Of a stretch of 13,573 nucleotides of DNA, positions 1 to 13,573 are shown one piece after another (position 1 is the stretch's first letter; each line of letters starts with the position of its first letter). Source of the DNA: Breznakia blatticola (GTDB lineage Bacteria; Bacillota_I; Bacilli_A; Erysipelotrichales; Erysipelotrichaceae); contig NZ_SODD01000055.1 of assembly GCF_004365815.1 (NCBI RefSeq), positions 1 through 13,573 on the forward strand, written 5' to 3'. Position numbers and translations under genes: made by a program. The notes under the pieces are model-generated. The model did not search any database and was not told the origin of the DNA. It saw nothing but the letters and a program-made list of their open reading frames with translations.

Positions 1-51
1 GTGATTAATACATATGTAGCGCCGTATACGAGAACCGTACGTACGGTGCAA

Positions 52-96
52 TGGGAGGGGCGAAAGAATATATTTCTTTCCCTCTACCCTATTTTT
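52..96. terminator. GC-rich stem-loop between the ssb stop and the window edge; possible terminator for convergent transcription
   Basis: GAAAGAA (62-68) pairs with TTCTTTC (74-80) around a TATAT loop. The stem is extended by G-rich 56-60 pairing with 81-85, with one bulged C. A T5 run (92-96) follows on the plus strand, but only after a 6-nt gap, and there is no U-tract on the minus strand. The terminator call is therefore tentative. Confidence 0.35.
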
Positions 97-412
97 CTTC
101 GTGATCTAAGAAACTTACTTTCTCAGCAACGAATTCATAATTTGTGTAGGTCTTATTTTCTTCGCTTGTATAAAAACTTGTTTGTACTCGACCGCGAACA
201 CCAACGAGTGCTCCAGGTTCACAAACATCAATTACATCTTCAGCAATACCACGCCAAAGCGTTACCTGAAATACATCATAGTCATATACATTATCCGCAT
301 TTTTAAAGTTTCGTTTTACTTTTACACTAGCAGTTGCAAATTTAATATTTGAGCTAGTTAAACGAAGTTCTGGTTTTTCTACCATTCGACCTACAATTAC
401 AAAATGATTCAA
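89..412 (-). CDS. ssb: Single-stranded DNA-binding protein, short paralogue (107 aa) consisting of the OB fold only
   Basis: ORF 89..493 trimmed to the TTG at complement 410-412. A GAGGTG Shine-Dalgarno lies 5 nt upstream (minus strand AAAGAGGTGTTATATTG). The product, LNHFVIVGRMVEKPELR...FQVTLWRGIAEDV...VGVRGRVQTSFY...AEKVSFLD, aligns by eye to Bacillus SsbA/SsbB OB folds. The longer ORF would read through the upstream gene's terminator. Confidence 0.85.
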   Translation of the reverse strand: MNHFVIVGRMVEKPELRLTSSNIKFATASVKVKRNFKNADNVYDYDVFQVTLWRGIAEDVIDVCEPGALVGVRGRVQTSFYTSEENKTYTNYEFVAEKVSFLDHEEK

Positions 413-475
413 TATAACACCTCTTTTCTTTCTTGTCACGTATATATAGGCAAGAAAAAGAAAGTATCCTAAAGA

Positions 476-511
476 AGATAAAAAAACCATCACAGAATAT
501 CAATGATGGTT
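476..511 (-). terminator. Rho-independent terminator of the DUF567 gene
   Basis: Minus strand reads AACCATCA-ttgatattctg-TGATGGTT followed by TTTTTATCTT. The 8-bp stem occupies 485-492 and 504-511, and it starts 18 nt after the TAA at 530-532. Confidence 0.7.
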
Positions 512-529
512 ATCATAGAGTTTATTGAA

Positions 530-1003
530 TTAATTATTACTATCTAACTTCACACGATCAATGGCAATGACAAGTGCAACAATTAGTTTTTCATAAGTAT
601 CATCATCAATTTTAATTACATAAGAATCACCCCAAGTAAACCATTCTTTATGAATCGAAGCAATCTGTCGGTTTTGCAGTGTGATTGTAAAGTTCATATC
701 CCATATATCACCACTTACTTCAATGCCATCAGCTTCAATGTGATATTTTGCATGAAAAAATGAGAAGTCACGGTAAATGGTAGCGACATCATAACCATCA
801 ATATCAACATAAAACCGTGGTAAGAAGCTAAATACCTTTTTGGTTATTGTTGCAAACTCACCATTTGCATCATAAATTGTAAAATGTTTAGGTATTTCCA
901 TGAAGCTTCCTTCAACCCAATATATGGGTGTTTCATTTGCATCGAAAACGGTAAATTTTTCTCCTATCGAGAATACTTTTTGTTTTATATAGAGTGTTTT
1001 CAT
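530..1003 (-). CDS. LURP-one-related / DUF567 family protein (YxjI-like, tubby C-terminal-like fold)
   Basis: Intact 157-aa ORF with AAGAGGT just upstream of the ATG. The sequence pattern MKxLYIKQKxFSxxxKFxVxDxxxxxxYxVEG...FxIxDxxG...WxxxF is the one I recognise from YxjI/LURP-one-related proteins. The family call is from memory and was not searched. Confidence 0.75.
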   Translation of the reverse strand: MKTLYIKQKVFSIGEKFTVFDANETPIYWVEGSFMEIPKHFTIYDANGEFATITKKVFSFLPRFYVDIDGYDVATIYRDFSFFHAKYHIEADGIEVSGDIWDMNFTITLQNRQIASIHKEWFTWGDSYVIKIDDDTYEKLIVALVIAIDRVKLDSNN

Positions 1004-1022
1004 AGTACCTCTTTCTATATGT

Positions 1023-1031
1023 ATAATAGCA
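1023..1031 (-). promoter_or_regulatory. Candidate extended -10 promoter for the DUF567 gene
   Basis: Minus strand reads TGCTATTAT (TGnTATTAT), about 20 nt upstream of the ATG at 1003 and directly after the upstream operon terminator. The -35 is weak (TATTTT at 17 nt). Confidence 0.35.
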
Positions 1032-1043
1032 CAAACGATGACA

Positions 1044-1076
1044 GAAAATAAAAAAGATGACTATTTGCCATCTTTT
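1044..1076 (-). terminator. Rho-independent terminator ending the rnj-ftsK-ymfF-ymfH operon
   Basis: Minus strand reads AAAAGATG-gcaaatagt-CATCTTTT followed by TTATTTTCTG. The ymfH TAG stop (1061-1063) lies in the loop. Confidence 0.65.
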
Positions 1077-2338
1077 GGAAGTATTTCAACTTCACATGTA
1101 TTATTGATATCAATTAGAGCACTTGCCTCTTTAATGACATCCTTATTTACTTTATTCACAATTTCTAGACTTTCAAAGAAATCCAATCCTGCAAAGTATG
1201 TACGAACAAATCCAATACTAATGGAATCAAAACTATTAAGCGATGTTACATTACTTCCATATACACGACGCTTCATATTTTCGAGTTCTTTTTCATCAAA
1301 GTCACAAATATTTTGTAGTTCATGTTTAATGGTTGCATAGAATTCTTCAATCTTATTGGTTTCTGTGCTAAATGCGATAAGTCCATAATCTTTTGTGAAT
1401 TCTACGTCATATGAGAAAGAATCATTGATAATTTCTTGATCCATCCATTCTTGATATTTACTTGCTAATGGTGAAAATGCAACATCTAGAGCAAAGGTAA
1501 TTGCCCATTCATATAGTTCTGCTTGTTTTGCATCACGGATTCCTGGCATCTTAAAAGTTAATGCTGTTTTTGGTGTAGTGATATCCATTTGAATTTGTGC
1601 ATGTGGTGTTTTAACTTTTATTGGTTCATCCACATAAATACGACTTGCTTGATATGGAAGTTCAAAGGTTTTCTTAGCTTGATTTTCTTTGATGGTTTCC
1701 ATTAATTCTTTTGGATCATGTCCACTAACTCCTACTAAAATCATACGACTTGGATGATAATTTAGTTGATAACATTCATATAGTGTTTCTAGTGTAATTG
1801 CATTTACACTATCTGCAGTACCACCAATATCATGTTTCATTGGGTGAATATCAAAAACGGAAGCAAATAACTCGCTAAATAGACGAGCATCAGGCATTTG
1901 ATTATACATTTCAAGTTCTTGAATGATAATCCCCTTCTCTTTTTCGACAGACTCTTTGGTAATCGTTAGCTCTTGAACAAAATCAAGCAGTAAATTCAGT
2001 GGCTTGATTGGGTTATTGGTTGTTGAAAAGTAATATGCAGTTTCGTTATAAGAAGTAAATGCATTCACATTAGCTCCTAAACTAGAAAACTCTTCCATGA
2101 CATCCTTACCTTCTTTTTCAAACATCTTATGTTCCAAAAAGTGTGCAACTCCTTCTGGGTATGTATGAACATTTCCATGTTCATCTTTTTGGTCGTGATC
2201 ACGTCCACCAAATGGTGTTGCAAACACGAAATTGCTTTTCTTAAATCCAGGTTTTTGCCATAAAATGACATGTAAACCATTTGGTAAAGTTTCACTAATA
2301 TAGCTTTCCTTAAAGTGATGATTTGTAATTGTTTCCAT
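1061..2338 (-). CDS. ymfH: M16 family zinc metallopeptidase (insulinase/pitrilysin-like), catalytically competent subunit, YmfH-like
   Basis: 425-aa ORF. The inverzincin motif HFLEH is encoded at 2129-2143 (minus strand CAC TTT TTG GAA CAT), with the downstream NAFTSYNETAYY glutamate region. The ATG overlaps the upstream stop (TAATG). The position after the inactive partner and ftsK matches B. subtilis ymfF-ymfH. Confidence 0.9.
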   Translation of the reverse strand: METITNHHFKESYISETLPNGLHVILWQKPGFKKSNFVFATPFGGRDHDQKDEHGNVHTYPEGVAHFLEHKMFEKEGKDVMEEFSSLGANVNAFTSYNETAYYFSTTNNPIKPLNLLLDFVQELTITKESVEKEKGIIIQELEMYNQMPDARLFSELFASVFDIHPMKHDIGGTADSVNAITLETLYECYQLNYHPSRMILVGVSGHDPKELMETIKENQAKKTFELPYQASRIYVDEPIKVKTPHAQIQMDITTPKTALTFKMPGIRDAKQAELYEWAITFALDVAFSPLASKYQEWMDQEIINDSFSYDVEFTKDYGLIAFSTETNKIEEFYATIKHELQNICDFDEKELENMKRRVYGSNVTSLNSFDSISIGFVRTYFAGLDFFESLEIVNKVNKDVIKEASALIDINNTCEVEILPKDGK

Positions 2339-3573
2339 TAGTTTTCATCTCCTTTACGTAAGACAAATGTAGTAAGCAACTCAATTTGAGACATTATTTC
2401 TTTGATGTCTTCTAGTGTTACTTCATAAATTTGTTTGATGATTTCTTCAACACTTACATCTGTTGCCAAAATCATATTGCGGTAACCAAAGTTCAAAATA
2501 CCATGTAAATCATCCATTTGTGTCATAAATGAATTGGCAAGCATATCCTTAACCACTTGGATGATGCTATGATCAAAATCACCTTGTTTTACACGTTCCA
2601 ATTGTTCTTTTATCAATGTGATTGTCTTATCAACATTTTCTTCATTTACTCCAACATTGACACTTAATACTCCATCATATGGATGCAATCCAGAGTGGAT
2701 GGAATATGCAAGTGAGTGTTTTTCACGCACTTCACGAAACAACAATGAAGACGGTGTTTGACCGAAGATTGCATTTGCAACTGCTAATTTCCAATAAGAT
2801 GCATCAAGATTGTTGATGTTGGTTTGATAGACCATTGAGATATACGCTTGACTAATATCACGATATTCTTCGATATAGTTATCTTTACGTTTTGCATCCA
2901 CTTTATAAGATACAGCAGGTATGATTTTCGCATCACTGATAAATGCATTCTTGATTTGCTCGATTGTAGAATCGTCTACATTACCGATAACGAGTACTTC
3001 CATAACATCATCTTGTATCATGGATTGCATAGCCTCAAGTAAACTATCCGGTGTAATGTTTTTTACTTCATCTTCAAAAAATAGGACTTGATTAGCAAGT
3101 GCATACCCTCTTCCTGCTTCGTGTAACGCTTTACTTGAAGCATACTGGCTTGGTTCATCATACATACGAGTTGTTTTACTTAGCGTCATACGAATACTTT
3201 CATCTACGTAGTTTTTATATAACTTTCCATTTTCATCAACTAATGGTTCATATAAAAATGCTTTCATGACAGCAATTGCTTCCATAATTAAATCTTCTTT
3301 GTAGTCGATATAAGATGGATCAATAATACGTGCACGTAGTTCAACAACTTGGCTATCTCCATAGGTCATATAATTGCTTGAAATACTTGCACCATACATT
3401 GCATTTAGTTTATCTACAATACTTGCTTTGGTTGGATATTGCTTACAGACATTGGTTAAATAGTCGGATATTACCATTCTTGGTGCAACACTATCTTTAT
3501 GTAATGGTGAACGAAAACGTACACTAATTACGATATTTTTGAATTTTGTTTCTTTAATAACTTTTAAATTCAT
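2338..3573 (-). CDS. ymfF: M16 family peptidase-like protein lacking the HxxEH motif (probable inactive partner, YmfF-like)
   Basis: ORF 2338..3645 trimmed to the ATG at 3571-3573, which is preceded by GGAGAA (minus strand TAAGGAGAAAACAATG). The longer form would overlap the ftsK 3' end. It has M16-like length and C-terminal domain pattern, but the zinc-motif position reads SDYLTNVCK. Confidence 0.85.
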   Translation of the reverse strand: MNLKVIKETKFKNIVISVRFRSPLHKDSVAPRMVISDYLTNVCKQYPTKASIVDKLNAMYGASISSNYMTYGDSQVVELRARIIDPSYIDYKEDLIMEAIAVMKAFLYEPLVDENGKLYKNYVDESIRMTLSKTTRMYDEPSQYASSKALHEAGRGYALANQVLFFEDEVKNITPDSLLEAMQSMIQDDVMEVLVIGNVDDSTIEQIKNAFISDAKIIPAVSYKVDAKRKDNYIEEYRDISQAYISMVYQTNINNLDASYWKLAVANAIFGQTPSSLLFREVREKHSLAYSIHSGLHPYDGVLSVNVGVNEENVDKTITLIKEQLERVKQGDFDHSIIQVVKDMLANSFMTQMDDLHGILNFGYRNMILATDVSVEEIIKQIYEVTLEDIKEIMSQIELLTTFVLRKGDEN

Positions 3574-3583
3574 TGTTTTCTCC

Positions 3584-5818
3584 TTATTCGTCTTGTACAG
3601 GTTTACGATAGACTTCACGTGGTTTGGAACCATTTGCTGGTCCAATAACTCCTTGATCTTCTAGTAAATCGATAAGACGTGCAGCACGTGAGTATCCAAT
3701 TGAAAACTTTCTTTGGATAAATGATGTACTGGCTTTTTGTGATTCTACGACAAATTGATATACTTCATCAAATAGCGGATCACTACTAATTGTACTGTTT
3801 ACTTGTCCATCGTGCTCTTCTAAGCGTAAGAAAGCATCTTCATAGTTAGGTCCAGCCTGTTTTGAACTAGCTGCAGCAATCGCTTCAACTTCATCATCTG
3901 AGACAAAACATCCTTGCACACGAATTGGTGAGTTTTCACCTTGTGGAATATATAACATATCACCAAGTCCAAGCAACTTCTCAGCCCCTTGTTGGTCCAA
4001 AATGGTACGTGAATCAATTGCCGAGCTTACAGCAAAAGCAATACGACTAGGAATATTCGCCTTAATTACTCCAGTAATAACATCAACACTTGGTCTTTGC
4101 GTTGCAACAATCAAGTGAATACCTGCAGCTCTAGCAAGTTGGGTAATACGTTGAATACTTGCCTCTACTTCTTTAGCAGCAACTAACATTAAATCGGCAA
4201 GTTCATCAATAATTACGACAATCCATGGTAATGGTTTTGCCCCAGTCTTTTTGACAAACTCATTATATCCGGCAATGTTACGAACACCAGCTTGTGAGAA
4301 GTAATTATAGCGTTCTTCCATGATATTCACGACCACTTTAAGTGCTCGATTTGCACTATCTCCATCGGTAATTACTGGTCCAAGTAAGTGCGGGATATTT
4401 GCATACATCGTAAATTCCACTTTCTTTGGATCAATAAGCAACATTTTAACTTCATCTGGTTTTGTGCGCATCAGTAATGAAGTAATAATACTGTTTACAC
4501 AAACACTTTTCCCACTTCCGGTTGCTCCTGCAATTAGTAAGTGAGGCATTTTATTTAGTTCGCCATAAACATTATTCCCCATCAAATCTTTACCCAAAGC
4601 AAACAGTAGTTTCTTATTTGCACTACTTTGTGGAATGGTGCGTAATAAATCACGAATATTTACTAAGGTTTTCTCTTGGTTAGGGATTTCAATACCGACA
4701 GTACTTTTTCCTGGAATTGGCGCTTCAATACGAATATCTTTAGCTGCTAGTCCCATTTTTATATCTTGTTGAAGATTGCTGATTTTATTAACACGAACAC
4801 CCTCTTCAACTTTTAATTCAAACTTTGTGACACTTGGTCCGATATGTGTTGCCACAAGTTGTGTATTTACATCGAATTGCTTCAAAATGTACACAAGACG
4901 TTTTCCTGCTTCATTTGCTGCATTTACATTACTGCTATTCTTCCCTTTTCGTTCAGGAATGGCAAGTAAGTTTAAACTTGGAAGTTTATATCTTGAGTAG
5001 TCTGTTGAAACCGTACGTTCATTTGTTGATGTTTGCTCTACTACTTCTGGTGTTGGTTCTGCAGGTGATAGTACATCTACTTCATCATAGTCATCAGCTA
5101 ATATTCCAACATTGGTTGGTTGTGTATCTTGATATAGTAAATCTGCAAAATCCTCGGTTGGTTCTTCTTCCACTTCTTCATAATCTAAAATCTTTGCTTC
5201 TTTATCAGCGACGCGCTTAATTTTACGATTTTCTTTACGCACTTCATGTTTTTCACCCATACGTGTAAACATCGCTTTAATACGCTCACGATCTTCTTTA
5301 CGTAAAGCTACAACAATATAAATCAGTGTGAGTCCTGCAAGTAAGATATAAGTTCCACTTTTATCAAATAAGATCGTCGATAGACTGTAAAGAAGTGCTC
5401 CGATGATTCCTCCACCTGCATGAAATGCACCACTTAGTATATTACTTGTATTCTTAAGATAGTAATTTAAAAATGCTTGCCCTTTGAAGTTAACATCCAT
5501 AAAGGTTGTTAAAAAGGTTTGCATCATTAAAAATCCAATAATTGTCATTATGACAAGTTTTGTGTTGAGTCCGCGTAAGGTTTTCTTAATCATGTAATAA
5601 ACACAAAGTATGATGCATAGTGCAAATACTGCTGGTGTACTTTCCCCAAAAATGAAGCGCATTCCATGGTTTAACATTTCCCCAACAAGTCCAACACTTA
5701 ATAACCCGATAAGTGCTACTGTAATAAAAAGTAAACAGTAGACATAGAGAAGAACCTCACTTTCTAAAGCGCGGTTCTTCTTTTTATTTGTTCTTTTTGT
5801 TGTTTTCTTTTTCGCCAT
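3584..5818 (-). CDS. ftsK: DNA translocase FtsK/SpoIIIE
   Basis: 744 aa. It has a lysine-rich N-terminus followed by about 4-5 hydrophobic helices and an acidic/Pro/Thr-rich linker. The motor domain carries Walker A GATGSGKS (encoded around 4504-4530) and Walker B VVIIDELADL. The C-terminal gamma winged-helix reads SFIQRKFSIGYSRAARLIDLLEDQGVIG. SD AGGTGG lies 7 nt upstream. Confidence 0.95.
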   Translation of the reverse strand: MAKKKTTKRTNKKKNRALESEVLLYVYCLLFITVALIGLLSVGLVGEMLNHGMRFIFGESTPAVFALCIILCVYYMIKKTLRGLNTKLVIMTIIGFLMMQTFLTTFMDVNFKGQAFLNYYLKNTSNILSGAFHAGGGIIGALLYSLSTILFDKSGTYILLAGLTLIYIVVALRKEDRERIKAMFTRMGEKHEVRKENRKIKRVADKEAKILDYEEVEEEPTEDFADLLYQDTQPTNVGILADDYDEVDVLSPAEPTPEVVEQTSTNERTVSTDYSRYKLPSLNLLAIPERKGKNSSNVNAANEAGKRLVYILKQFDVNTQLVATHIGPSVTKFELKVEEGVRVNKISNLQQDIKMGLAAKDIRIEAPIPGKSTVGIEIPNQEKTLVNIRDLLRTIPQSSANKKLLFALGKDLMGNNVYGELNKMPHLLIAGATGSGKSVCVNSIITSLLMRTKPDEVKMLLIDPKKVEFTMYANIPHLLGPVITDGDSANRALKVVVNIMEERYNYFSQAGVRNIAGYNEFVKKTGAKPLPWIVVIIDELADLMLVAAKEVEASIQRITQLARAAGIHLIVATQRPSVDVITGVIKANIPSRIAFAVSSAIDSRTILDQQGAEKLLGLGDMLYIPQGENSPIRVQGCFVSDDEVEAIAAASSKQAGPNYEDAFLRLEEHDGQVNSTISSDPLFDEVYQFVVESQKASTSFIQRKFSIGYSRAARLIDLLEDQGVIGPANGSKPREVYRKPVQDE

Positions 5819-5835
5819 ATTCTGCCCACCTATTA

Positions 5836-7500
5836 TTATACGTTTGTTGTTTCTAAAATCACGGGTAAAACCATTGGTCGTTTCCCTGTTTCTTTAACCA
5901 AATACTTACTGATTTTATCTTTTGCTTCTGCACGACATTCTAAGTTATCGTAACGGCGATCTTTTACTGCTTTTTCGATTGTTTTTTTCATGATGTTCAT
6001 TACTTCTTTAATTAAGTAATCTGCATCTTTTAAATATACAAGACCTCTTGTTTGTACATCAATTCCACTGATGATTTTCTTTGTGCGATTATCTAGTGTA
6101 ACACCAATAATCATCACACCATCTGTTGACAACCATTCACGGTCTTTTAAAACAACCCCAGTTACATCCCAATTTTCATCTCCATCAATGAGTTGATCTT
6201 CAAGTTTGATCACTTCATCTGTAGAAATTAGCTTTTTATTTTGGAATGTTGCCACTTGTCCATTGTCTAATAGGATGATTTTGTCATCATCATATCCCAT
6301 TGAACTTGCTAAATTAGCATTCGCAATCAAATGACGATATTCACCTTTTACTGGAATGTAGTATTTTGGTTTAAATAGAAATAATGCCATTTTTAAATCT
6401 TCTTTTGAAGGGTGCATACTTGCAGCATCTTTTGCTTTAAAAGAGTAAATGCGTCCACCTTCTTTATAGATTTCATTTTCCATATTTACTGCTTCATGCT
6501 CAGTCCCATTAACCACAGGACTTGTAATAACAATTGTGTCATTCTTTTGCATTTCTACATATTTATCTTCATTAGTCGCAATTGTTGAAATCTTAAGGAA
6601 CAAGCGTTTTCCACGACCTGTAACTAAAATCACAACATTTTTCATATCATTTTTAAATTGATCACGTGGAATGATCATGTTCTTTGGTAATTTATAGTAA
6701 CCAAGTTCATCAAGATATTTTAACGTTTTAATCATTTCTTTATCACGAATAAAGACTTTCTTTTTGTATTTAATCGCCATGTCTAATATTTCCATAATGC
6801 GGTATAGACTTTGACGGTAACAAGCAACAATTAGACGATTCTTACCACTTTCTTCAAAGATTGGTTCTAACTTCTCTTTGATTTGGTGGTGTGGTGCTGT
6901 GTGTCCTTCATTTGTAGCACTAACGGATTCGCTTAGTAATGCTAGAACACCCTTGTTTCCAATTTCACTTAGCACATTCACATCCATGCGGTATTCATCA
7001 CTTAAACTATTGTAATCAACAATGAACTCTCCTGAGAATACAACAGCACCTTGGCTTGTCATAAAAGCAATTCCAAAGTTATCTGGTGATGCATGTGTCA
7101 TCGCAAAGGTACGAACTGGCACACCTTCAATTTTAAATGTCGATGAGCGATCAACGACATGAAGAATGTACTCATTAATTCCCGCTTCATGTAATAAGTC
7201 ATGCACAAAAAGCGATGTAAACTTCCCTGTATAAACAGGAATATTGATCTGTTTAAGCAAGAATGGTAATGCACGCATTACATCATCGTGTGCATGAGTA
7301 ATGAAAATCCCTGCAATTCGCTCTTGGTTTTCAATTAAGTAGTTAAAATCAGGAATGACATATTCCACTCCTAGTAAGGCGCTATCTGGAATCATGATTC
7401 CCGCCTCAACGATAAAGATTACGTCGTTAATCTCAACCACGGTCATATTTTTACCGTTTTCGTCAAGACCTCCTAACGCAAATATTTTTACTGTATCCAT
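5836..7500 (-). CDS. rnj: Ribonuclease J (metallo-beta-lactamase/beta-CASP), J2-like with substituted active-site ligands
   Basis: 554 aa that aligns by eye along its full length to B. subtilis RNase J1/J2 (KIFALGGLDENGKN..., GVEYVIPDFNYL, KPKYYIPVKGEYRHL). SD AAGAGGA lies 9 nt upstream. It sits immediately upstream of ftsK, as rnjB (ymfA) lies near spoIIIE in B. subtilis. Confidence 0.9.
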   Translation of the reverse strand: MDTVKIFALGGLDENGKNMTVVEINDVIFIVEAGIMIPDSALLGVEYVIPDFNYLIENQERIAGIFITHAHDDVMRALPFLLKQINIPVYTGKFTSLFVHDLLHEAGINEYILHVVDRSSTFKIEGVPVRTFAMTHASPDNFGIAFMTSQGAVVFSGEFIVDYNSLSDEYRMDVNVLSEIGNKGVLALLSESVSATNEGHTAPHHQIKEKLEPIFEESGKNRLIVACYRQSLYRIMEILDMAIKYKKKVFIRDKEMIKTLKYLDELGYYKLPKNMIIPRDQFKNDMKNVVILVTGRGKRLFLKISTIATNEDKYVEMQKNDTIVITSPVVNGTEHEAVNMENEIYKEGGRIYSFKAKDAASMHPSKEDLKMALFLFKPKYYIPVKGEYRHLIANANLASSMGYDDDKIILLDNGQVATFQNKKLISTDEVIKLEDQLIDGDENWDVTGVVLKDREWLSTDGVMIIGVTLDNRTKKIISGIDVQTRGLVYLKDADYLIKEVMNIMKKTIEKAVKDRRYDNLECRAEAKDKISKYLVKETGKRPMVLPVILETTNV

Positions 7501-7553
7501 ATATTATAATCCTCTTTCTTTTATTCTTTTTGGTATGTAAATTTCCTTAATCA

Positions 7554-7562
7554 AGTATATCA
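7554..7562 (-). promoter_or_regulatory. Candidate extended -10 promoter for the rnj operon
   Basis: Minus strand reads TGATATACT (TGnTATACT), about 54 nt upstream of the rnj ATG. The -35 is poor (ATGTGT). Other A/T-rich -10-like hexamers exist in this spacer, so the assignment is weak. Confidence 0.25.
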
Positions 7563-7667
7563 TAAAATGCATCTAAACACATTAGAATACCCATGAAAGT
7601 CCAATGAAACCGCTTTATTTTCTCAACTTCTTATAAAATATAGCATTTTACATTTTTAATACGTAAA

Positions 7668-7705
7668 CAAAGGGTTGCAAATGATTGAATGTTGGCAAAC
7701 CTTTG
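7668..7705. promoter_or_regulatory. Imperfect inverted repeat (candidate operator) bracketing the -35 of the three-gene operon promoter
   Basis: CAAAGGGTTGCAA (7668-7680) faces TTGGCAAACCTTTG (7692-7705). Twelve of 14 positions are complementary (6 + 4 + 2 bp blocks), with an 11-nt centre containing the TTGAAT -35 box. Confidence 0.3.
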
Positions 7706-7714
7706 TGTTAGAAT
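7685..7714 (+). promoter_or_regulatory. Sigma-A type promoter of the activase/dehydratase-like operon
   Basis: -35 TTGAAT (7685-7690), an 18-nt spacer, then the extended -10 TGTTAGAAT (7706-7714). The predicted TSS is near 7721, and SD GAGGGA (7731-7736) lies 9 nt before the ATG at 7746. Confidence 0.5.
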
Positions 7715-7745
7715 GACACATATGGAAAATGAGGGAACGATAAAT

Positions 7746-10682
7746 ATGACTTATAAAATAGGCTTAGATATCGGTTCAACAACGATCAAAGCAGTCGTTT
7801 TGAATGATACAAATGAAGTAGTATATAAAAGTTACGAACGTCACAAATCAAGAGTTCGTGAAATGGCACTAGAAAAGATTGAAGAATTAAAACCGATTAT
7901 TAAGGATCATAAATTCAAGATTTCTTTAACTGGTAGTGCTGGTTTAGGAATTGCAAACAATGCTAATTTACCATTCGTACAAGAAGTTTTTGCGACAACC
8001 AAAGCAGTTAGAAAATATCACAATGACAGTGATGTTGTAATTGAACTTGGTGGTGAGGATGCAAAAATTATTTTTTTACGTGGAGCTTTAGAGGAACGAA
8101 TGAATTCAACATGTGCCGGTGGTACTGGAGCATTTATCGATCAAATGGCAACGCTACTCAATGTCGACTTGGCAGAACTTGATTCCCTCTCACAAAACTA
8201 TACAAAATTATATCCAATTGCTTCACGCTGTGGAGTCTTTGCGAAAACGGATATTCAACCATTATTGAACCAAGGTGCTCAAAAGGAAAATCTAGCTGCT
8301 AGTATTTTCCAAGCTGTTGTTGATCAAACCATTACCGGTCTTGCTCAAGGAAGAACCATTGATGGAAATATTCTATTCTTAGGTGGTCCTTTATCCTTTA
8401 ATAAAGGCTTACGTGACCGCTTTATTGAAACTTTAAAAATTGATGAAAGTCAGGCGACACTTCCAGAAATGGGACCATACTTTGTTGCTTTAGGGGCTGC
8501 AATTAGTGCAGAAAGTGAAACTCAAGATTATACATATGCACAATTAATGGATGCATTAAAACGTGCAGCAAATGTGAAAGTCTCACATGAAGGTCTACCT
8601 CCCCTATTTAATAATGATGACGAATATTTAGAGTTTAAAGAACGTCATGCAAAAGCGAAAGTGCAAGAAGTAGATCTTGCTAGCTATAAAGGTAAAGCAT
8701 ATTTGGGAGTTGATGCAGGAAGTACGACAACTAAAATTGTTTTACTAAATGAAAATCATGAGATTTTATATCAAAACTATACGTCAAACCAAGGAAATCC
8801 AGTTGATGTTGTGCAAGAACAACTCACTAAAATTTATTCAATCAATCCAGAGATTCAAATTGCTGGAAGTGGTGTTACTGGATATGGAGAAGAATTGATT
8901 CGTCAAGCTTTCCATATGGACCAAGGTGAAGTAGAAACCATCTCTCACTATACTGCAGCTAAACATTTTGAACCAAATGTTGATTTCATTATCGATATTG
9001 GTGGTCAAGATATGAAGTGTTTTAAAATCAAAGATAATCGCATTGATGAGATTATTCTAAATGAAGCATGTAGTTCTGGATGTGGTAGTTTCATTGAAAC
9101 TTTTGCCAACTCTTTAGGATATGACATTATTCAGTTCTCACAAATGGGCTTAATGGGTCAACATCCAGTGGATTTAGGTAGTCGTTGTACAGTCTTTATG
9201 AATTCATCAGTGAAACAAGCACAAAAGAATGGTGCAACTGTTGAAGATATTAGTGCAGGACTTGCTATCTCAGTAGTAAAAAATGCACTATATAAAGTTA
9301 TTCGTATTGCAGATCCAGAAGATTTAGGACAAAACATCGTTGTACAAGGTGGAACATTCTTAAATGACACTGTATTACGCAGTTTTGAAAAAGAATTAGA
9401 TAAACCTGTTGTTCGTCCACAAATATCTGGACTTATGGGTGCTTTTGGAATTGCACTAATCGCACAAGAAAAATCAAATGGAACAAGTACAATTCTTAGT
9501 AAAGAAGAAGTCGAAAACTTTACCCATACTTCAAAAGTAGTAAACTGTCGTCTTTGTGGAAACAACTGTTCCCTAACAATTAATACGTTCGGTGATGGAA
9601 AACGTCTTATTGCTGGAAATAAATGTGAACGTCCAATTAAAGGTGAAGCAAACTTTGATATTCCAAATGTTTATGCTTTAAAAATGGCAAAATTGGAATC
9701 GTATAAGGAACTATCAAAACCAGGTAAACGCGGAAGACTTGGTTTACCAATGGTACTTAATATGTATGAAAACTTACCATTCTGGCATACGTTCTTTACC
9801 GCTTTAGATTTTGAAGTTATTGTGAGCGACCGTTCTAGTAAAGCGATTTACAATAAGGGACAACATACAATTCCTTCAGATACAGCGTGTTATCCAGCAA
9901 AATTAGTACATGGTCATATTGTGAATTTATTAGAAAAGGATTTGGATGCAATATTCTACCCTGCTATGACTTATAACTTTGATGAAGGAATTAGTGATAA
10001 CTGCTTTAACTGCCCTGTTGTTGCATACTATCCTGAAGTCATTCAAGCAAATATGGATGTGAAAATTCCATTTATGTATCCATATATTTCTGTTAATGAT
10101 AAAAAGGATTTTATGAAGAAAATCCGTCGTTATCTAAAAGAACAAGGATACAGTATATCTAAAAAAGAAATCGTTGAAGCGAGTAATCTAGCTTATGCGG
10201 AATACGAAAACCATACAAATGAAATTGAAAGCTATGCACGTGAAGCATTAGAGTATGCACAAAAAGAAGATTTAAAAATCATCTGTTTAGCAGGACGTCC
10301 ATACCATATCGATCCTGAAATTAACCACGGAATTGATCGTTTGATTACCTCACTAGGTTGTGCGGTTATTTCTGAAGACAGTGTGGCACGTACAGTTGAG
10401 TTTGAAAAATTCCAAGTATTAAACCAATGGACATATCACGCTCGTTTATATCAAGCAGCAAACTATATTGCCAATATTGAAAATTGTGAACTTGTACAAC
10501 TTGTAAGTTTTGGTTGTGGACTTGATTCCATTACATCGGATGAAATTCACGACATCTTACATGAAAACAATAAAATGTATACACAACTTAAAATTGATGA
10601 AATTGATAATTTAGGAGCTGTGAAAATACGAATTCGTTCATTACTAGCAGCAATGGAAGACCGGGAGGAAGCAAATGAGTAA
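7746..10682 (+). CDS. Large subunit of a BCR/HAD-family ATP-dependent reductase (PlsA/PlsR plasmalogen-synthase-like): two tandem BcrAD/BadFG (HgdC-type activator) ATPase modules, a Cys4 linker and a DUF2229-like dehydratase-related module
   Basis: ORF 7689..10682 trimmed to the ATG at 7746 (SD GAGGGA). Module 1 has GLDIGSTTIKAVVL, ELGGEDAK, STCAGGTG and SRCGVF. Module 2 has GVDAGSTTTKIVLL, DIGGQDMK, EACSSGCG and SRCTVF. The linker carries CRLCGNNC...NKC. The C-terminal module has ACYPAKLVHGH, NCFNCPVVAYYPE and SFGCGLDS. 978 aa. Confidence 0.85.
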   Translation: MTYKIGLDIGSTTIKAVVLNDTNEVVYKSYERHKSRVREMALEKIEELKPIIKDHKFKISLTGSAGLGIANNANLPFVQEVFATTKAVRKYHNDSDVVIELGGEDAKIIFLRGALEERMNSTCAGGTGAFIDQMATLLNVDLAELDSLSQNYTKLYPIASRCGVFAKTDIQPLLNQGAQKENLAASIFQAVVDQTITGLAQGRTIDGNILFLGGPLSFNKGLRDRFIETLKIDESQATLPEMGPYFVALGAAISAESETQDYTYAQLMDALKRAANVKVSHEGLPPLFNNDDEYLEFKERHAKAKVQEVDLASYKGKAYLGVDAGSTTTKIVLLNENHEILYQNYTSNQGNPVDVVQEQLTKIYSINPEIQIAGSGVTGYGEELIRQAFHMDQGEVETISHYTAAKHFEPNVDFIIDIGGQDMKCFKIKDNRIDEIILNEACSSGCGSFIETFANSLGYDIIQFSQMGLMGQHPVDLGSRCTVFMNSSVKQAQKNGATVEDISAGLAISVVKNALYKVIRIADPEDLGQNIVVQGGTFLNDTVLRSFEKELDKPVVRPQISGLMGAFGIALIAQEKSNGTSTILSKEEVENFTHTSKVVNCRLCGNNCSLTINTFGDGKRLIAGNKCERPIKGEANFDIPNVYALKMAKLESYKELSKPGKRGRLGLPMVLNMYENLPFWHTFFTALDFEVIVSDRSSKAIYNKGQHTIPSDTACYPAKLVHGHIVNLLEKDLDAIFYPAMTYNFDEGISDNCFNCPVVAYYPEVIQANMDVKIPFMYPYISVNDKKDFMKKIRRYLKEQGYSISKKEIVEASNLAYAEYENHTNEIESYAREALEYAQKEDLKIICLAGRPYHIDPEINHGIDRLITSLGCAVISEDSVARTVEFEKFQVLNQWTYHARLYQAANYIANIENCELVQLVSFGCGLDSITSDEIHDILHENNKMYTQLKIDEIDNLGAVKIRIRSLLAAMEDREEANE

Positions 10683-11925
10683 AATAGAACGCGTTGAATT
10701 TACCAAAGAAATGAAGAAAACGCATACCATCCTTATTCCAAATATGTTACATATGCATTTTCAAATCCTTGAAGAATTATTGATTTCTGAAGGATATAAA
10801 GTAGAACTGCTTAAAACAAAGCATCAAAATATAGTGAATGAAGGGGTAAAAAACGTACACAATGATACATGTTATCCTGCCCTACTTGTTGTTGGACAAA
10901 TGATTGATGCTTTAAAAAGTGGTGCATATGATCTTGATAAAGTTGCCTTGATTATTACCCAAACTGGTGGTGGATGTCGTGCAAGTAACTACATTCATTT
11001 ATTAAGAAAAGCACTTAGAAATAATGGAATGGCACATATCCCAGTAATTTCAGTAAACTTCTATGGATTAGAAAAAAATAGTGGATTTACATTCACTTAT
11101 CGCTTCTTAATAAAAGCGATTTATGGAATTATTTATGGTGATTTACTAATGTGGATCTCCAATCAATGTAAGCCATATGAACTTGAAGCAGGTGCAACTG
11201 ATGCCATGGATAAGAAATGGACAAAGAAAGTTGCAGACAGTCTTCATTCAACAAAATTCTTACATATTAAAGCAAATTATAAAGAAATATTAGATGATTA
11301 TGCATCGATTGCTAGAAGTAATGAGCAAAAAGTTAAAGTTGGAATCGTTGGTGAAATCTATATGAAGTATTCCCCTCTTGGAAATAACAGTTTAGAAGAA
11401 TTCTTATTAAATGAAGGAGCTGAACCTGTTGTGACTGGATTGATGGATTTTATTGCCTACTGTTGTGAGAATATGATTTTGGATTACAGTTTATATGGAA
11501 TCAATAAAATGAATCGTAACTTTGCACGAGTTGTGATTAAGTATATCATTCACTCGCAACGTAAGATGATTAAAGCAATAAAGAAACATGGAGTTTTTCG
11601 ACCAATGTCAGACTTTAGTCAAATCAGTAATATTGCCTCAGATTACATCTCAAAAGGTGTAAAAATGGGAGAAGGATGGTTACTGACAAGTGAAATGTTA
11701 GAACTTATTGAATCTGATGTGAATAATATTGTTTGTTGCCAACCGTTTGGTTGTTTACCAAATCATATTGTCGCTAAAGGAATGATGCGTAAAATCAAAG
11801 ATAACTATCCATATTCAAATATTGTGGCCATTGATTATGACCCTGGTGCAAGTAGCATTAACCAGGAAAATCGTATTAAACTAATGTTAAGTAATGCAAA
11901 ACTTAACATGGAGGAATCAAAATGA
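10675..11925 (+). CDS. HgdB / D-component-like (2-hydroxyacyl-CoA dehydratase-related) subunit, equivalent to the C-terminal module of the ~1400-aa fused 'CoA-substrate-specific enzyme activase' proteins
   Basis: 416 aa. The ATG at 10675 overlaps the upstream stop by 8 nt (ATGAGTAA), and SD GGGAGGA lies 5 nt upstream. Conserved Cys-containing blocks are NDTCYPALLVVGQ, TQTGGGCRASNY and CCQPFGCLPNH. Confidence 0.85.
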   Translation: MSKIERVEFTKEMKKTHTILIPNMLHMHFQILEELLISEGYKVELLKTKHQNIVNEGVKNVHNDTCYPALLVVGQMIDALKSGAYDLDKVALIITQTGGGCRASNYIHLLRKALRNNGMAHIPVISVNFYGLEKNSGFTFTYRFLIKAIYGIIYGDLLMWISNQCKPYELEAGATDAMDKKWTKKVADSLHSTKFLHIKANYKEILDDYASIARSNEQKVKVGIVGEIYMKYSPLGNNSLEEFLLNEGAEPVVTGLMDFIAYCCENMILDYSLYGINKMNRNFARVVIKYIIHSQRKMIKAIKKHGVFRPMSDFSQISNIASDYISKGVKMGEGWLLTSEMLELIESDVNNIVCCQPFGCLPNHIVAKGMMRKIKDNYPYSNIVAIDYDPGASSINQENRIKLMLSNAKLNMEESK

Positions 11926-12716
11926 ATCTGTTCGATGCCATCATAGCATTCTTTGTTTACGCCTTCCTAGGATGGGTTTGCGAAACAATCTATGTCAGTG
12001 TTGGTAAACGACATTTTGTAAAGCGTGGGTTCTTATATGGAACGATATGCCCAATCTATGGGTTTGGTGCACTTGCTGTACTTTATGTATTGGATCCATA
12101 TACGTATTACCCACCACTTATTTTTATTTTAGGTGTAGTTGTTACTAGTACACTTGAATATGTAACAAGTTATGGAATGGAAAAAATCTTCCATCTTCGC
12201 TGGTGGGACTATTCAACATATAAATTCAATCTGAATGGACGAATTTGTTTAAAAAACTCGATTATGTTTGGAATTATGGCACTTGTATTAGTTTATGGAA
12301 TACACCCTGAAGTCGTTGAATTGATCAAAAGTCTACCGGATGTCACAAAATACGTGCTGACTGGTTTACTCATTGGTATCTTTATTACCGATACGACATT
12401 CTCGATTGTACATGCACTTGATATTAATAAAGCACTACAACGTGTTGATGAACTTAAGGATAAAATTGGTAGTGATGCAGAGTTACTAGCAAAACAAGTC
12501 AATGAAAATATTCAAAATGTACGCGAACAAATCTCGGATAAGACAATTAAAGCAAGTAATCGTTATAGTAAGCGTCTTGAACACTTTAAAGAGTCATATC
12601 CAAGTTTGAAACCAATGATAGAAGAACATCGCTTAAAAGCATTAGAAAGTATTATTCAAACTTTGAAAGATGCAAATCTACCACTTACGAAAAAAGAGAA
12701 AAAGAAAAAAAGATGA
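11922..12716 (+). CDS. Integral membrane protein of the 'putative ABC-transporter type IV' (DUF1113 / CmpB-like) family, with a C-terminal cytoplasmic coiled-coil, lysine-rich tail
   Basis: 264 aa. ATGA start/stop overlap with the upstream gene, and SD GGAGGA lies 6 nt upstream. There are about five hydrophobic helices in residues 1-165, including the family signature FLGWVCETIYV...KRGFLYGTICPIYGFGA. Residues ~170-264 are hydrophilic and helical and end in KKEKKKKR. Confidence 0.8.
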   Translation: MNLFDAIIAFFVYAFLGWVCETIYVSVGKRHFVKRGFLYGTICPIYGFGALAVLYVLDPYTYYPPLIFILGVVVTSTLEYVTSYGMEKIFHLRWWDYSTYKFNLNGRICLKNSIMFGIMALVLVYGIHPEVVELIKSLPDVTKYVLTGLLIGIFITDTTFSIVHALDINKALQRVDELKDKIGSDAELLAKQVNENIQNVREQISDKTIKASNRYSKRLEHFKESYPSLKPMIEEHRLKALESIIQTLKDANLPLTKKEKKKKR

Positions 12717-12730
12717 GCGATCATCTTTTT
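12707..12730. terminator. Bidirectional rho-independent terminator shared by the convergent operon and the HAD gene
   Basis: AAAAAGATGA (12707-12716), loop GCGA, TCATCTTTTT (12721-12730) form a 10-bp stem. T-runs follow on both strands. The stem contains the TGA stop of the plus-strand gene (12714-12716) and abuts the TAA of the minus-strand gene (12729-12731). Confidence 0.7.
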
Positions 12731-13442
12731 ATTTTGCGTCTTCTAATTCTCTAACAAATGCTAAGAATCCTTTTGCATCTGTATTCCACTGTGCAAGTTT
12801 TGCCTCATTCTTACGGTCAATTAAATGGTCATTAATTAAGTAAAGTGGAATATCTAGTTTTAAGATTGCCCCATCTTCTTGGGCATCATTTCCAACCATC
12901 ATCACATCTGCTTTATCAATTTGATGCTTTTCTAATACTTCTGTAAAGTACGCTGGATTTGGCTTACAGTAATGGTAATCTTCAAATGTCGTAACTTCTA
13001 AGAATGCATTCGCATCAACTCCAGACCAACGAAGTCTAGATTCACTTGCAATTTTTGGGAATAATGGGTTGGTTGCTGCAATCATTTTATACCCTTTTTG
13101 TTTTAAAACTTCAACGGCTTCAACTATATCGGCATTTTGTGTTACCACAGATTCGATATTCTGAAAGTCTGTTGTATAGAAATCTTCAAATGTTGATTCG
13201 ATTTCACTTGCAGGGATCGAACTTACTTGTTCAAAGGTCTGCCAAAAGATTTCTGCATTGGTTTGGCTTCCATCATTTGTTGTCATTGCTTCAGTTCCTG
13301 CCCAAATCGCTTTTATAAGTAAATCTGCATCATATGTTGAATCAGCAAATTTGCGTTTAATTTGTCCAAAATATTGCTTGATGAATTCATCAAGGTCCAT
13401 GGAAAGTAATGTTCCATCTAAATCAAATAGTATTGTGTTCAT
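12729..13442 (-). CDS. HAD-superfamily hydrolase (phosphatase-like, subfamily IA type)
   Basis: 237 aa. Motif I is ILFDLDGTLL, motif II is IAATNP, the conserved Lys is in CKPNP, and motif IV is MVGNDAQEDG. SD AGAGGAGAA lies upstream of the ATG at 13440-13442. Confidence 0.85.
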   Translation of the reverse strand: MNTILFDLDGTLLSMDLDEFIKQYFGQIKRKFADSTYDADLLIKAIWAGTEAMTTNDGSQTNAEIFWQTFEQVSSIPASEIESTFEDFYTTDFQNIESVVTQNADIVEAVEVLKQKGYKMIAATNPLFPKIASESRLRWSGVDANAFLEVTTFEDYHYCKPNPAYFTEVLEKHQIDKADVMMVGNDAQEDGAILKLDIPLYLINDHLIDRKNEAKLAQWNTDAKGFLAFVRELEDAK

Positions 13443-13467
13443 GTATTCTCCTCTATCGCATAGTACT

Positions 13468-13496
13468 ATTTAACCTTATTTTGTTTTCATAGTCAA
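13468..13496 (-). promoter_or_regulatory. Candidate sigma-A promoter of the HAD hydrolase gene
   Basis: Minus strand has -35 TTGACT (13491-13496), an exactly 17-nt spacer, and -10 TTAAAT (13468-13473), about 25 nt upstream of the ATG. Confidence 0.45.
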
Positions 13497-13500
13497 AGTA

Positions 13501-13532
13501 AAATAAAAAAAGATGCAAAATTCATTGCATCT
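13501..13532 (-). terminator. Rho-independent terminator of a minus-strand gene lying beyond the 3' edge of the window
   Basis: AGATGCAA (13511-13518) pairs with TTGCATCT (13525-13532) around a 6-nt loop. On the minus strand the hairpin is followed by TTTTTATTTT (13501-13510). All three minus-strand frames hit stops at 13532-13548, consistent with a gene ending just upstream of the hairpin. Confidence 0.6.
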
Positions 13533-13573
13533 TATATCGACTTATTCAAATAGTGCAGTTGATAGATAACGCT

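Follow-up and report, generated by a model that had tools for sequence, protein, structure and literature searches.

A probable anaerobic plasmalogen synthase operon, plsA-plsR, in Breznakia blatticola

The closest described relatives of the genes examined here are those of the anaerobic plasmalogen synthases, which convert common membrane phospholipids into vinyl-ether lipids (plasmalogens) in the absence of oxygen. The plsA-plsR pair of Clostridium perfringens (CPE1194/CPE1195), carried on a 4,199-bp fragment cloned by Jackson et al., is reported in PMC12838417 to make plasmalogen in Escherichia coli, and the single-gene PlsA proteins of E. faecalis, L. cremoris and B. longum likewise give rise to plasmalogens in that host (PMC12838417). 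A scheme of reduction, protonation and dehydration has been summarised for PlsA/PlsR in PMC8788747, and plsA/plsR genes have already been reported in the Erysipelotrichales (PMC9702350). In the present work a stretch of 13,573 nucleotides (nt) from Breznakia blatticola (contig NZ_SODD01000055.1, positions 1 to 13,573; hereafter the window) was analysed, with emphasis on two overlapping open reading frames (ORFs) at positions 7746-11925. Based on the sequence comparisons described below, we consider it likely that this segment is a plsA-plsR operon encoding an oxygen-sensitive, ATP-dependent anaerobic plasmalogen synthase.

Identification of the two genes

The two genes, of which the first occupies a reading frame of 7689-10682 (+) in the ORF listing of the window, are the following:

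7746-10682, plus strand: plsA, 978 amino acids (aa), comprising activase 1, activase 2, a Cys4 linker and a DUF2229 module; assigned by Pfam, NCBIfam and alignment with C. perfringens PlsA
10675-11925, plus strand: plsR, 416 aa, a second HgdB/HadC-like module ("Red2"); assigned by alignment with C. perfringens PlsR, fold and cysteine conservation

The plsR gene starts with an ATG inside the end of plsA, the two overlapping by 8 nt, and has a GGGAGGA ribosome-binding site in front of it; its product is identical to B. blatticola TDW10694.1/WP_279586086.1. Together the two proteins amount to 1394 aa (978 + 416). The same genes had been described previously from the letters of the sequence alone (hereafter the original prediction), and the facts read there, namely the ORFs, their coordinates, the modules, the Cys4 linker and the cysteine blocks, all proved correct when compared with the ORF listing, Pfam and NCBIfam.

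The C. perfringens locus was recovered by means of the published cloning primers (PMC12838417 Table S6). The forward primer matched 11 metagenome contigs, on two of which (L006 and L004) the reverse primer matched as well. On L006 the primer sites span exactly 4,199 bp, the published size of the cloned fragment, and enclose two ORFs 8 nt apart, the first of 975 aa when read from the TTG in the primer, the second of 420 aa. Two "Clostridium sp." genome-contig loci were rejected as representatives of C. perfringens, as they are matched by the forward primer and not by the reverse one; at locus L002, 4 of the 22 bases of the reverse-primer site differ.

The 978-aa protein is 60% identical to C. 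perfringens PlsA (975 aa; 78% positives over 973 columns with 4 gaps), and the 416-aa protein is 55% identical to C. perfringens PlsR (420 aa; 403 columns, no gaps). Both alignments are full-length and collinear, and the gene order and the Pfam pattern are the same in the two organisms. A recent preprint defines the "plsA portion" as that which combines two activase domains with PF09989; by this definition, and by the collinear identity, the 978-aa ORF is therefore assigned as PlsA and the 416-aa ORF as PlsR. This settles a question of naming that the original prediction had left to an alignment, and it marks the Breznakia pair, at the level of sequence, as clear orthologues of C. perfringens plsA-plsR. 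Public databases carry these proteins under the names "2-hydroxyacyl-CoA dehydratase", "acyl-CoA dehydratase activase-related protein" and "putative nucleotide-binding protein".

The spread of the family was examined by an exhaustive search with PlsR, which returned 3,435 representative clusters (E <= 1e-3), 495 of them with E <= 1e-30. Some relatives of PlsR are stand-alone proteins of ~400-450 aa; in others, which are fused proteins of 1338-1616 aa, the module makes up the last ~410 residues, and the module order shared with single-polypeptide proteins, as it had been predicted, is thus borne out. The fused representatives are 30-43% identical to Breznakia PlsR; one at 41% (P0263) belongs, from its cluster names, to Parascardovia (Bifidobacteriaceae). 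When the PlsA proteins of E. faecalis, L. cremoris and B. longum were sought among the 50%-identity representatives by their primer-encoded terminal residues, none matched. Among the homologues listed for PlsA, proteins of ~969-1009 aa are 61-80% identical to that of Breznakia. When 92 PlsR modules were joined in a neighbour-joining tree, calculated with no bootstrap and with no Ger sequences, Breznakia PlsR fell inside a clade of split proteins, where it groups with those of [Clostridium] innocuum, Anaerotruncus and Zongyangia and then with C. perfringens PlsR. A phylogeny with PlsA/PlsR, Ger, dehydratase and DCCP proteins had been put forward earlier as a check on the assignment; of these groups the present tree covers C. 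perfringens PlsR, with which the Breznakia protein is placed.

Some single members of the family deserve mention. A fused PlsA-like protein of 1415 aa (P0365), on a 2.17-Mb contig, is annotated from Barthelona sp. PCE (KAL0229736.1), an anaerobic protist, which suggests that the anaerobic plasmalogen pathway of bacteria may have passed horizontally into a eukaryote. In a protein of 1364 aa (P0314) the PlsR-like module is N-terminal (residues 7-413) and the remainder follows it, a permutation of the usual fused order. At locus L017 (3068-6014), from a Breznakia-related assembly, plsA is called as two ORFs of 218 and 769 aa; in the sister assembly L016, the PlsR of which is identical to that of L017, plsA is intact (981 aa), and the split reflects either a frameshift or pseudogene in L017 or a fault of the assembly.

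Modules, fold and proposed reaction

The 978-aa protein was divided into modules by profile searches and by alignment with solved structures, and residue conservation was scored in an alignment of 16 sequences that includes C. perfringens PlsA:

7746-8525, plus strand: activase module 1, an HgdC/BcrAD-type ATPase, residues 1-260 (alignment with 1hux_A and 4eht_A, E 1e-24)
8697-9479, plus strand: activase module 2, residues 318-578 (4eht_A, E 1e-29; 1hux_A, E 9e-26)
9546-9626, plus strand: Cys4 linker, C601-x2-C604-x3-C608-x18-C627 (invariant in 16/16 sequences)
9738-10385, plus strand: DUF2229 (PF09989) module of PlsA, "Red1" in the literature (Pfam, 258 bits; profile positions 2-218 of 218)

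Pfam detected BcrAD_BadFG in two stretches and DUF2229 in full length (residues 665-880), with scores of 258 and 214 bits, and NCBIfam TIGR00241, "acyl-CoA dehydratase activase", matched twice. The profile search that had been proposed for this protein thus returned two of the three families named in it; the third, HGD-D (PF06050), gave no match in PlsA at E <= 0.001. Both ATPase modules align over their full extent with two activators of known structure, HgdC (1hux) and HadI (4eht), in agreement with their earlier description as two complete HgdC/BcrAD-type modules, and DCCP-R is also among the sequence matches of each. The scores of these profile matches and alignments far exceed what chance would give. 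Invariant in all 16 sequences are D8, G10, S11, T12, T13, G102-D105, C123, C162 and G213-G214 of module 1, and D323-T329, G419-D422, C442, C446, C481 and G535-G536 of module 2; the ATPase (ASKHA) motifs are included among them (DxGSTT twice, GGED, GGQD and the GG motifs). Cysteines C123 and C162 align with C127 and C166, the [4Fe-4S] ligands of HgdC, and C442 and C481 of module 2 occupy the same two positions. Since the tandem pair holds both cysteines in each module, it can supply four ligands, as does the homodimeric activator, for a bridging [4Fe-4S] cluster.

Altogether 13 cysteines are invariant in the PlsA alignment. Four of these make up the linker, probably a metal or Fe-S site, and the C-terminal module contributes C715 (DTxCYPAK), C756 (NCPVVAYYPE) and, further downstream, C924 (SFGCG).

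In PlsR, only a weak N-terminal match to DUF2229 was found by Pfam. Its three cysteines, C66 (HNDxCYPA), C101 (GGGCRASNY) and C360 (QPFGCLPNH), do not vary among close homologues and occur in 91-92 of the 92 family representatives. An AlphaFold2 model of the protein (mean predicted local distance difference test score, pLDDT, 85.7; predicted template-modelling score, pTM, 0.87) was compared with the PDB by Foldseek. The top 14 matches were all subunits of 2-hydroxyacyl-CoA dehydratases and benzoyl-CoA reductases (HAD/BCR) or of DCCP (HadB/HadC, BzdNO, MbdON, DCCP), with E <= 4e-4, TM-scores of 0.37-0.53 and identities of 10-13%; the next matches had E > 0.01. The fold predicted for PlsR is thus HgdB/HadC-like. 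A sequence search of the PDB with PlsR, as a single sequence and as a 30-sequence profile, retrieved no solved HAD/BCR catalytic subunit, and the protein, which shares the fold of the superfamily, is yet very far from genuine dehydratases and reductases. According to hhalign, the first ~70 residues of PlsR are homologous to those with which the DUF2229 module of PlsA begins, DTxCYPA included (82% probability), a relation that fits two paralogous modules paired in an alpha/beta-like manner.

A mechanism can be proposed on this basis, by homology with the BCR/HAD systems and along the lines of the scheme summarised in PMC8788747. The tandem HgdC-type ATPase modules of PlsA would form an intramolecular pseudo-dimer holding a single bridging [4Fe-4S] cluster through C123 and C162 of module 1 and C442 and C481 of module 2. 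A low-potential donor, perhaps ferredoxin or flavodoxin, would reduce this cluster, and ATP hydrolysis would drive the injection of electrons into one or more Fe-S centres of a heterodimer-like catalytic core. The core would consist of the DUF2229 module of PlsA and of PlsR, distant paralogues with three conserved cysteines each, comparable to the alpha and beta subunits of 2-hydroxyacyl-CoA dehydratase; the Cys4 linker may have a role as well. Two successive one-electron steps accompanied by protonation would then reduce the carbonyl of the sn-1 acyl ester in a finished diacyl glycerophospholipid, after which dehydration would yield the 1-O-alk-1'-enyl (vinyl ether) bond. By analogy, the Breznakia product would be a vinyl ether rather than a saturated ether.

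One possible alternative is that the same machinery acts as a Ger-type glycerol ester reductase, its product being a saturated 1-O-alkyl ether, possibly formed via a vinyl-ether intermediate. The Ger proteins of T. maritima and D. alkenivorans are PlsA/PlsR homologues with the same BBD core that produce 1-alkyl glycerol monoethers in E. coli, and their authors regard Ger homologues as widespread in Firmicutes and the domains that decide the product as unknown (PMC13159169). Nevertheless, this outcome appears unlikely for Breznakia. Of the validated enzymes, the nearest (60% and 55% identity) is the pair from C. perfringens, which forms plasmalogens, and C. innocuum, a relative within the Erysipelotrichaceae the PlsR of which (P0169) is 61% identical to that of Breznakia, contains dimethyl acetals, the analytical signature of plasmalogens (9.95% C16:0 and 2.83% C18:0; PMC7543727). 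Both validated Ger enzymes are described as single proteins, whereas the Breznakia system is split like that of C. perfringens. Furthermore, the small PF06050 hits of Ger are found neither in Breznakia PlsR, even at E <= 10, nor in C. perfringens PlsR, a criterion that the Ger authors themselves call unreliable (PMC13159169).

Several points weigh against the assignment as a plasmalogen synthase. No reliable sequence rule separates producers of vinyl ethers from those of alkyl ethers (PMC13159169). The grouping with C. perfringens is that of a neighbour-joining tree of PlsR modules with no bootstrap and with no Ger sequences (T. maritima AGL49404, D. alkenivorans SHJ90043). The cluster assignments of PlsA/PlsR rest on conservation and homology, not on spectroscopy. 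Finally, a literature search for lipids of Breznakia led only to the description of a related species, with no Breznakia lipid data.

Neighbouring genes and flanking sequences

The operon is flanked by housekeeping genes (RNase J, FtsK, two M16 peptidases, SSB and a HAD phosphatase, as identified by Pfam), and it is followed directly by a gene for a membrane protein:

11922-12716, plus strand: membrane protein gene (PF06541, ABC_trans_CmpB), with a charged C-terminal tail of ~100 aa (Pfam, 180.7 bits; hydropathy)

This gene overlaps the plsR stop by 4 nt (ATGA) and lies behind a GGAGGAA ribosome-binding site; its product combines hydrophobic segments with a long, lysine-rich C-terminal tail of cytoplasmic type. 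A gene of the same family follows plsR in all six loci of the Breznakia/Anaerorhabdus clade that were examined (L015-L018, L025 and L026), which have 67-94% PlsR identity and the same wider synteny. The plsA-plsR loci of C. perfringens, C. innocuum, Longicatena and Zongyangia, and two further ones, have no adjacent PF06541 gene, and no function for the family was found in the literature.

This arrangement raises the question of whether the unit of the Breznakia lineage consists of three genes, the PF06541 protein tethering PlsA/PlsR to the membrane or presenting or redistributing their lipid substrate or product. A soluble enzyme must indeed reach a membrane-embedded substrate, and the 4-nt overlap, the good ribosome-binding site, the occurrence in each of the six loci and the hydrophobic segments with their long charged tail are all what such a unit would be expected to display. 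Yet the linked loci all belong to close relatives, for which inherited synteny is an adequate explanation; the gene is missing beside plsA-plsR at the six other loci, that of C. perfringens included; plsA-plsR, or plsA alone, is sufficient in E. coli; and the literature offers no function to build on. We therefore regard a three-gene unit as quite unlikely. The PF06541 protein is a lineage-specific neighbour and not a core component, because plsA-plsR alone works in E. coli. If a three-gene unit did exist, it would provide the first function for this uncharacterised family of membrane proteins, and a lineage-specific PF06541 partner is the only possibly new element of the locus.

In the original prediction, the coupled membrane-protein gene had served as an argument for a lipid substrate. 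The coupling itself is evident from the ATGA overlap; the weight placed on it is not sustained, since a linkage that occurs only in close relatives and is absent elsewhere says little about the substrate. The accompanying statement that no CoA-transferase, acyl-CoA dehydrogenase or electron-transfer flavoprotein (ETF) genes are adjacent stands, none having been found in the window or in the related loci. In three of the related loci a gene of the D-isomer 2-hydroxyacid dehydrogenase family (PF02826) lies divergently upstream of plsA (L016, 2001-2948; L018, 1949-2881; L025, 102-1064); neither the window nor its nearest relative, L015, has this gene.

A radical enzyme acting on a soluble substrate, be it a 2-hydroxyacyl-CoA dehydratase fused to its activator or some other reductase of the BCR/HAD type that acts on a CoA thioester, might be suspected from the NCBI names ("2-hydroxyacyl-CoA dehydratase", "acyl-CoA dehydratase activase-related"), from the fold that PlsR has in common with HadC, BzdO and DCCP and from the dehydrogenase-family gene of L016, L018 and L025, but it is highly improbable in view of the missing PF06050 match, the failure to match solved HAD/BCR catalytic subunits by sequence, a structural identity to these of only 10-13%, the lack of CoA-transferase, acyl-CoA dehydrogenase and ETF genes, the absence of the dehydrogenase gene from the window and L015, and the 55-60% identity to a lipid enzyme. 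The earlier preference for a lipid ester reductase of the PlsA/PlsR-Ger type over a fermentative 2-hydroxyacyl-CoA dehydratase is upheld by the identity values, by the tree and by the lack of any HAD/BCR sequence match.

Read as a plasmalogen synthase, the Breznakia pair is orthologous to an enzyme already described, and it comes from an order in which such genes had been reported before. No long-standing question is opened by it, because the family, its distribution in the Erysipelotrichales and its activity are all published. Its practical value lies in the correction of database names that wrongly suggest amino-acid fermentation. The assignment also predicts anaerobic plasmalogens in B. blatticola, an insect-gut member of the Erysipelotrichaceae, and bears in this way on membrane physiology, on tolerance of oxidative stress and on chemotaxonomy, where dimethyl acetals would be expected in the fatty-acid profiles.

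Upstream of plsA, a consensus scan indicated a candidate promoter:

7685-7714, plus strand: promoter-like site, TTGAAT, an 18-nt spacer and a TG-extended TAGAAT (consensus scan; weak, consensus-level evidence)

The site lies ~30 nt 5' of ATG 7746, the most plausible plsA start, which gives a protein of 978 aa. This ATG is preceded by a GAGGGAA ribosome-binding site, and the product translated from it begins MTYKIGLDIGSTT, like the homologues of 969-1009 aa; PlsA homologues (about 972-988 aa) open with M-x-Y-K-x-G-L-D-x-G-S-T-T. Automatic gene calls place the start at ATG 7689 (997 aa; P0001). This candidate was rejected, as homologue lengths, ribosome-binding site and promoter-like site all favour 7746; transcription from the promoter-like site would leave 7689 upstream of the transcript start.

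The promoter-like site is overlapped by an imperfect inverted repeat of 30 nt (7652-7681 / 7692-7721; span 7652-7721) that is 70% complementary and has the core ACAAAGGGTTGCAAA ... TTGGCAAACCTTTGT. The repeat might possibly serve as an operator; it is kept in the nearest relative, L015, and not in L016, L018 or L025, and no operator can be claimed because its conservation is confined to the closest relative. No regulator gene lies beside plsA in the window; in other lineages, some Erysipelotrichaceae loci included, a TetR gene is located upstream of plsA. Rfam and tRNA scans of the window revealed no riboswitch or RNA element tied to the operon.

At the other end, the 12-nt gap between the convergent PF06541 and HAD-hydrolase genes contains an AT-rich hairpin read from the sequence, AAAGATGA-GCGA-TCATCTTT followed by TTTATTTT (12697-12735). 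It is likely a weak bidirectional terminator; the consensus scan made no call there. At the left edge of the contig, positions 17-92 (+) match the Rfam model RF00029 (group II intron domains V/VI) with 40.7 bits, against a gathering score of 40; the match lies directly behind the stop codon of ssb, a minus-strand gene (89-493). A multi-copy intron at this position would explain why the contig ends there.

Comparison with known systems

The systems considered include HgdAB with HgdC, HadBC with HadI and the class I benzoyl-CoA reductases, with which the Breznakia proteins share the ATP-driven injection of electrons, the fold and cluster ligands of the activator and the fold of the catalytic modules. 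Their activator is a separate homodimer, whereas that of Breznakia is a fused tandem pair; their substrate is a CoA thioester, whereas that of PlsA/PlsR is a membrane lipid ester; and the similarity of the catalytic modules lies beyond detection at the level of sequence. The dehydratases recycle one electron catalytically, whereas a reaction of the PlsA/PlsR type needs a net two-electron reduction. DCCP and DCCP-R (6eno, 7yyl) are separate polypeptides, and DCCP, which is among the fold matches of PlsR, is no closer to it than HadBC.

Ger (T. maritima Tmari_0479/AGL49404; D. alkenivorans SHJ90043) has a homologous BBD core, requires anaerobic conditions for its activity and modifies membrane lipids at their sn-1 ester (PMC13159169). 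It is set apart, by its description, in yielding saturated alkyl ethers and in being a single protein that spans both parts and shows small C-terminal PF06050 hits, in the domain orders BBDHDDH or BBDHDHDH.

In the single-chain PlsA proteins (E. faecalis EF1327, Q835P9; L. cremoris; B. longum) the order of modules is the same, Act1-Act2-Red1-Red2; these are fused chains of 1415-1639 aa, whereas the Breznakia enzyme is split in two genes. The plsA gene of E. faecalis has a TetR regulator upstream (PMC9702350), unlike that of the Breznakia window.

The closest match is to C. perfringens PlsA (CPE1194, Q8XL48) and PlsR (CPE1195, Q8XL47), also a two-gene operon in the same order. The two differ in spacing and surroundings: an 8-nt spacer separates the C. 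perfringens genes, whereas those of Breznakia overlap by 8 nt, and the former are flanked by a radical-SAM gene upstream and a two-component system downstream, the latter by the PF06541 gene downstream. The two pairs agree in size (975 + 420 and 978 + 416 aa), in their Pfam pattern (two PF01869 domains and PF09989, then a weak PF09989) and in the Cys4 linker and all of the conserved cysteine motifs, which are common to both.

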